Shown one piece after another: positions 16,120-16,670 of a stretch of DNA of 64,000 nucleotides. Within the stretch, counting starts at the first letter, position 1, and the number at the start of each line of letters is the position of its first letter. Under the pieces are notes generated by a model. It worked only from the letters and a program-made list of their open reading frames with translations. It was not told the origin of the DNA and did not search any database. This stretch comes from Sphyrna mokarran (lineage: Eukaryota), in contig JAGIQG010000040.1 of assembly GCA_024679065.1 (NCBI GenBank), positions 5,456,001 to 5,520,000 of the forward strand. Reading direction: 5' to 3'. The position numbers and the translations under genes are program-made.

Positions 16120-16670
16120 ACGCACTCTCTGCCCATTTCCCCCGGCTTTTTGCCCTTTTCCCTGGCTCTCTGTCGTTAGCAGTGGTTCTTTTCCCGTTGC
16201 ATCCGGCTCTCTGTATTTCCACCTGGCTCTCTACTCTTCCCTCCAGGTCTATGCCTTCTCCCCGGCTCCCTACCCTTTCCTCCAGCTCTCTGCCTTCCCT
16301 CCCTGCTCCCTACCCTCTTTCTCCTTTCCCCCAACTCTCTGCCCTTTCCCGTATGCTCTTTCTCCTTTCCCAAGGCTCTCTGCCTTTTCCCCTCTCTCTC
16401 TGCTTTTTCTCTTATCTCTCTGCACTTTCGCCAACTTGCTGCCCTGTTCCCCGGCTGTGTGCCCTTTGCTCCGGCTCTTTGCCCTTCCCTCAGCTTCTCC
16501 CCTTTCCCCAGCTGTGTGCCCTTTTCTTTGGCTGTCTGCCCTCCCCCATGCACCCCGCCCCCCCGGCACTCTGCCCTTTACCAGGCCTCCTGCTCTCCCC
16601 TGATTCTTTGCCATTGTTCTTGACCCTGAGCCCCAGCGATTCCCTCCAGCTTTCTGCATTCCCAAGCTGC
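16120..16670 (-). repeat. Degenerate ~21-bp minisatellite, G/purine-rich on the IgM sense strand
   Basis: Repeated plus-strand ccc(c)ggctctctgccctttt(c) units = sense-strand GAAAAGGGCAGAGAGCCGGGG. Confidence 0.8.

Follow-up and report, generated by a model that had tools for sequence, protein, structure and literature searches.

Here we report that a G-rich tandem array in the JH-Cmu1 intron of an IgM cluster of Sphyrna mokarran is quite probably an old passenger minisatellite, one that arose once, spread by duplication of IgM clusters and most likely has no selected role. The initial annotation had proposed an S-like function for the array. Against such a function stand AGCT and WGCW counts at chance level, a low GGG total, restriction to IgM, deletion from intact-looking clusters, decay, and germline breakpoints that lie mostly elsewhere. 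The repeat is undescribed in the literature searched; papers and supplements from the Hsu laboratory, which fall outside that search, may cover a nurse-shark equivalent.

The window, by which we mean the whole 64-kb stretch of DNA analysed, holds a minus-strand IgM minicluster, with TCR-type V segments on the surrounding DNA. Its features are the following.

23968..24300, minus strand: VH exon with an open frame, an RSS heptamer at 23982 and a V-set domain by Pfam.
23141..23600, minus strand: two D segments with an RSS on either side (heptamers at 23169/23182 and 23557/23571).
22730..22816, minus strand: JH segment with a 23-bp-spacer RSS at 22778.
15149..22729, minus strand: JH-Cmu1 intron, 7581 bp, GT..AG, its joint 15148-22730 present in contigs of run X2, which is only guessed to be RNA and whose contigs may derive from close paralogues.
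16120..16670, minus strand: degenerate 20-bp polypurine minisatellite of about 27 units, predicted to be prone to R-loops and G4 on the IgM sense strand.
16000..16090, minus strand: decayed LINE-type retroelement tail (3' end), immediately 3' of the array and oriented as IgM.
16830..18300, plus strand: low-complexity TG/AG tract a short way 5' of the array (GC skew +0.67, +0.60).
19529..19837, no strand assigned: 8-copy tandem repeat with a 39-bp unit, distinct from the array, inside the JH-Cmu1 intron.
14850..15148, minus strand: Cmu1 exon, C1-set by Pfam.
12222..14656, minus strand: Cmu2 (in ORF 14063-14656), Cmu3 (13062-13427) and Cmu4 with the secretory tail (12222-12620).

The RSS pairs of the D segments have 12/22-23 spacers, and the cluster comprises four C exons, with a TM exon near 9200. 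Around it we noted TCR alpha/delta-type V segments at 1337-1732, 40195-40671 and 43776-44153, at 48233-48715 (plus strand) and at 50834-51316 (minus strand). Their RSS have a 22-23-bp spacer (one RSS lies at 58358), and the segments at 48233 and 50834 form an inverted near-duplicate pair. Linkage of shark IgM, IgW, IgNAR and TCR alpha/delta is described in PMC12227049.

The array lies 0.97-1.52 kb upstream of Cmu1, about 6.1-6.6 kb downstream of JH, in agreement with the initial annotation, which had placed it roughly 1-1.5 kb upstream of Cmu1. Equally borne out is the description of its sense strand as rich in G and purine: the counts are G 241, A 192, C 78 and T 40 (n=551), or 79% purine and 44% G. 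The proposed length of some 550 bp of degenerate repeat stands (551 bp, about 27 units), while the period of about 21 bp has to be corrected. Self-identity at lag 20 is 0.52, where none of 300 dinucleotide shuffles goes beyond 0.41, and because self-identity peaks at this lag we take the unit to be 20 bp; TRF gives a period of 19-20. The majority unit is GGAAAGGGCAGAGAGCCGGG, from a position matrix of 243 units in 17 representative array copies, and the repeat unit quoted earlier holds as a consensus, not as a literal copy. Open reading frames across the array are low-complexity, and a coding role was set aside; no family reached the gathering score in an Rfam scan of the intron. A structured RNA was considered and rejected, the one Rfam match (E 0.06) being far under the gathering score and outside the array. 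An assembly artefact is likewise ruled out, both by the existence of paralogues and by DNA run X1, possibly the assembly's own source, one 454-bp contig of which matches 16038-16491 with zero differences.

The retroelement tail on the 3' side of the array is presumably of LINE/CR1 type. A 20-copy profile of this flank (16000-16090) in IgM clusters hits a LINE-like ORF at its 3' end, in the window at 28456-28532 (E 1.4e-8), and also LINE-like ends in loci L064, L031 and L067; Pfam gave no family for two short ORFs of this kind. That the 20-bp unit derives from LINE sequence just upstream of the tail is a weak lead, suggested by visual likeness in a part that the profile did not reach. A second LINE-like 3' tail, common to many clusters, lies in the opposite orientation at 15320-15381 (plus strand), about 200 bp upstream of Cmu1. 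On the other side of the array, the TG/AG tract has its G-rich strand on the template, a skew opposite to that of the array. A further long TG/AG tract with a G-rich template strand occupies 10000-11200, in the Cmu4-TM intron.

A search with Cmu1, in which 150 of 199 candidates were scored, gave at least 34 loci at 52% identity or more; this number is a lower bound, there being at least one further J-side copy of the intron without a listed Cmu1. Profile searches of the 10 kb upstream of 33 of these loci, together with the window's own, found an array of at least 350 bp in 25 of the 34 listed loci, always in the sense orientation and just upstream of Cmu1. Four others (L043, L045, L046 and L061) hold remnants, and in the remaining five (L032, L040, L053, L062 and L063) the profile detected nothing. 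In a Cmu1 tree, the array-bearing rows all fall within one starred clade of 32 rows, and the divergent mu clusters L062 and L063, which have no array, fall outside it. This pattern fits one gain and several losses, in an order inferred from midpoint rooting. The divergent mu cluster formed by L105:8870-9270 with L062/L068 (G000:C994, ~7.405-7.419 Mb) has a germline-joined VDJ, open C1-C4 frames and no array.

Because the entire intron is common to the clusters, conservation of the array's position says little by itself. Across 30 loci the array is retained less often than its 3' flank (coverage 0.54-0.77 vs 0.83-0.97), and its offset from a 3' anchor ranges from 764 to 1169 bp in 11 bounded IgM copies. 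In loci L032, L043 and L046 the array is absent or almost absent and the frames of V and of C1-C4 are open; of the other array-less loci, L040 is interrupted by a frame break in Cmu4, and the Cmu1 of L053 contains a stop.

Beyond IgM, neither an array homologue nor a predicted R-loop tract was found in two of two IgNAR clusters, two of two putative IgW clusters or seven IgL introns. The IgNAR clusters are identified by C1, whose best shark match is PDB 4q97 (E 4e-32); the putative IgW clusters are so labelled for their V, J and CH1 and for more C domains that end in a secretory tail, the domain match being only a generic C1-set. Presence at the same intronic position in other clusters, a check named in the initial annotation, held for IgM and not for putative IgW (0 of 2). 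Other receptor-like genes came to light in these searches. A non-rearranging NAR-like VJ exon with C domains in L064/L070 (G000:C994, ~7.55-7.57 Mb) is probably the UrIg2 of PMC12227049. Unsplit V-like exons that end in G-x-G-T and are accompanied by C1 domains occur off the IgH/TCR contig in L081 and L084 (G000:C335) and L097 (G000:C446).

A genome-wide satellite or mobile element was also rejected as the source. Among at least 16 matches to the 5' border of the array, 15 lie on two IgH contigs and one on contig C849, and the uniform orientation of all 25 full arrays upstream of Cmu1 is not that of a randomly oriented satellite, part of the outcome named beforehand as refuting an S-like role. 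Since genome word searches skip common words, these match counts are lower bounds. Seven weak off-locus matches that we examined, on other contigs, are unrelated purine-rich arrays with other units and a period of about 18-22 bp, most of them longer.

Comparison of the copies points to decay. In a set of 14 de-duplicated copies (L031 and L048, which have lost their flanks, were excluded), mean pairwise identity is 0.72 for the array, 0.83 for the 3' flank, 0.82 for the upstream intron (13 copies) and 0.87 for Cmu1, although misalignment within repeats may depress the value for the array. The array is less identical than the 3' flank in 97% and less identical than the upstream intron in 96% of 78 pairs, its divergence is correlated with that of the flank (rho 0.86), and units inside one array are only 0.44-0.53 alike by lag-20 self-identity. 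Substitution rates in well-aligned columns are 0.037 for the array versus 0.027 for the flank in nine triplets, and 0.053 versus 0.040 in eight quartets (seven for the flank), two sets that share sequences and are not independent. G was lost and gained 95:39 times in the triplets, versus 76:31 expected from flank rates (p=1.0), and 74:21 times in the quartets, versus 57:23 expected (p=0.21). Pyrimidine-to-purine changes in the array numbered 27 versus 8.9 expected with triplets and 13 versus 7.8 with quartets (p=0.18), and maintained purine richness, apparent in the first set, was rejected as it is not significant in the second.

These properties are those of a minisatellite: head-to-tail units within the 10-60 bp range, variation in length through gain and loss of units (a core of 446-716 bp in 14 copies, with remnants in four loci), and constraint no higher than in the flanks. 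Ordinary strand-skewed minisatellites of the VNTR type are a known class in vertebrates, and the array resembles them in its 20-bp unit, purine/pyrimidine asymmetry, copy-length variation and unit loss. It differs from an ordinary VNTR in being old and degenerate and in having been multiplied through duplication of a gene cluster.

Based on these observations, we propose that the array would have begun as a single expansion, by slippage or unequal crossing-over, next to the LINE tail, in a common ancestor of the main IgM family from which the two divergent mu clusters had already separated. It would then have been copied along with the whole IgM cluster, and would later have decayed by point mutation (mostly G to A) and loss of units with no homogenisation, being nearly or fully deleted in several lineages. 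Decay of the CpG in the unit's AGCCGG is the likely source of most AGCT sites in the array. The CpG is variable and TG and CA are both common in its place, which fits this source without proving it; the ratio TG:CA is 37:52 under a loose pattern and 29:16 under a strict one. Selection for AGCT was considered and set aside, these ratios being opposite in direction.

Several findings speak against the array being a mere passenger: it persists in 25 of 34 listed clusters with a predicted R-loop tract in every one of the 25, its GGG density is 6.7 per 100 bp vs about 8.0 for human S-mu, WRCY is enriched, and one detached copy exists. The prediction of GC skew, G4 and R-loops, put forward as a check in the initial annotation, singles out the array: no other R-loop-forming tract is predicted in the 64 kb, and no window scores higher with G4Hunter (36 G-runs of three or more; G4Hunter mean 0.87). 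These R-loop calls are predictions from our own implementation of the QmRLFS rules. An R-loop tract on the opposite strand is also predicted in 21 of 34 IgM introns, in CA/CT-rich stretches related to the TG/AG tracts. Moreover, when 10-kb stretches were picked arbitrarily from four large contigs, three of the ten held predicted R-loop tracts, five in all and two of them longer than 300 bp, and one 400-bp window had a G4Hunter score of 0.95 vs 1.00 for the array. With such tracts and similar arrays present elsewhere, it is not unlikely that the array arose once by chance in an intron of 7.6 kb. As the G-rich strand is the non-template strand, transcription of the array is predicted to produce a short R-loop, likely as a by-product.

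The five AGCT sites listed in the initial annotation (16284, 16492, 16510, 16648 and 16665) are exact, yet they are no excess over dinucleotide shuffles (5 vs 2.8+-1.4, p=0.13), and neither are the 16 WGCW (vs 15.0, p=0.43). Both are significant only against mononucleotide shuffles, so the excess resides in the dinucleotide make-up. Five or more AGCT occur in 68 of 1269 windows of 551 bp across the 64 kb, and arrays hold between one and seven of them (2.2-13.4 per kb in 17 representative copies). WRCY, in contrast, exceeds its count in dinucleotide shuffles (17 vs 9.1, p=0.002), though at a rate only slightly above that of the window (31 vs 26 per kb).

Could the array nevertheless be a primordial switch-like element under selection, one that concentrates AID-initiated breaks for switching between shark IgH clusters? 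Its position, strand, clustering of G and retention in 25 of 34 listed clusters are consistent with such a role, and it resembles mammalian S-mu and S-gamma in being a tandem repeat of the J-C intron, upstream of Cmu, with G clusters on the non-template strand and a predicted capacity for R-loops and G4. Mammalian S regions span 2-12 kb and consist of GAGCT/GGGGT-type repeats (PMC5485518, PMC2442634), and the GGG density of human S-mu is about 8.0 per 100 bp over 1489 bp, or 121 GGG per 1.5 kb (PMC7293029). The array, in contrast, is 0.45-0.72 kb long (551 bp in the window), has AGCT at the level of chance with one GAGCT and one GGGGT in the window's copy, and reaches 46 GGG per 1.5 kb (63 if overlapping), with a maximum of 57 (91 if overlapping) among the 34 IgM introns. 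It also shows no sign of constraint, with the same net loss of G as in its flanks and repeated deletion.

Like Xenopus S-mu, the array is a repetitive sequence of the J-C intron in an animal that is not a mammal. Xenopus S-mu is AT-rich and works via an AGCT-rich region (PMC2442634), whereas the array is G-rich with AGCT not in excess. Sharks are stated to be without S regions in the reviews PMC4279169, PMC8201067 and PMC6795676, and switching between IgM and IgW is reported to run both ways (PMC4279169). The array shares this type of locus, but being confined to IgM, with IgNAR and putative IgW empty, it cannot act as one of a matched S pair. The array does not belong among the S regions, and a selected switching role strikes us as very improbable. 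In shark inter-cluster switching, the joins reportedly lie in the J-C intron (Zhu et al. 2012).

Somewhat less improbable, though still unlikely, is an array of unselected origin that is active as a fragile site, forming an R-loop on transcription, breaking through AID or replication stress more often than other parts of the intron, and offering shared homology for exchange among IgM clusters. The sense-strand R-loop tract predicted in 25 of 25 full-length arrays favours this possibility, as does the presence in each unit of GGCA (RGYW) and AGCY (WRCY), and a 1-kb G-rich cassette partially restores switching in mice (PMC5485518); the array may act as a short R-loop cassette. In addition, an orphan copy of about 700 bp (L006:1465-2167; G000:C849, ~36.0757-36.0764 Mb; 83.6% identity to L038/L039) spans the array nearly exactly. 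It is inserted directly behind a LINE-like tail, and the 10 kb to its left and right contain no match to an Ig exon. For two intron segments used as controls, of 621 bp and 2.1 kb, there was no long orphan copy among the matches scored. The orphan is, however, a single case, the array lies 6 kb from JH, and IgW and IgNAR partners are absent. Germline breakpoints also fall largely elsewhere. In a max-chi-square triplet scan of 20 clusters, 11 of 293 breakpoints lay in 16000-16999 and 259 in 19000-22499, in a rough, non-independent and centre-biased scan that loses power with falling alignment cover, which is lowest in the array (0.58-0.77) and in the tract above it.

The 39-bp repeat at 19529-19837 sits in a zone with many called breakpoints. 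The J-side intron of the window (19000-22500) groups with L060, L032, L043, L051 and L054 in a starred clade at 84-88% identity, a clade not seen near Cmu1, where the window is closest to L033, L035 and L036. Comparison of the copies suggests that IgM clusters may be germline mosaics produced by old exchanges between V-D-J and C modules. Joints in the X1 contigs have depths of 19-62, as germline paralogues would give, and the X2 contigs leave the array uncovered, contigs being unable to show absence.

A last possibility, which we regard as the least probable, is that the array, as a repeated binding site for transcription factors or as a pausing element, adjusts the expression or splicing of IgM. 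The distance to Cmu1 is fixed in most copies, and each unit carries GGGAA/GGAAA, which we take to resemble Ikaros and NFAT cores. Yet the array is less conserved than the adjoining intron and is deleted in intact-looking clusters, and no Rfam family scored at its gathering level in the intron.

The passenger minisatellite thus remains our preferred explanation, and as such it cautions that a shared G-rich repeat at the position of S-mu can stem from duplication alone. It is unlikely that the main shark IgM family carries at this position an ancestral R-loop tract that biases AID-initiated breaks and exchanges among IgM clusters, a pre-switch element; if it does, this would show how a chance G-rich minisatellite in a J-C intron could seed true switch regions. 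The locus family also provides a natural experiment, with 25 array-bearing IgM clusters and several intact-looking array-less ones in one genome. Evidence that G-rich DNA steers switching in sharks, if found, would bear on the origins of switch regions.
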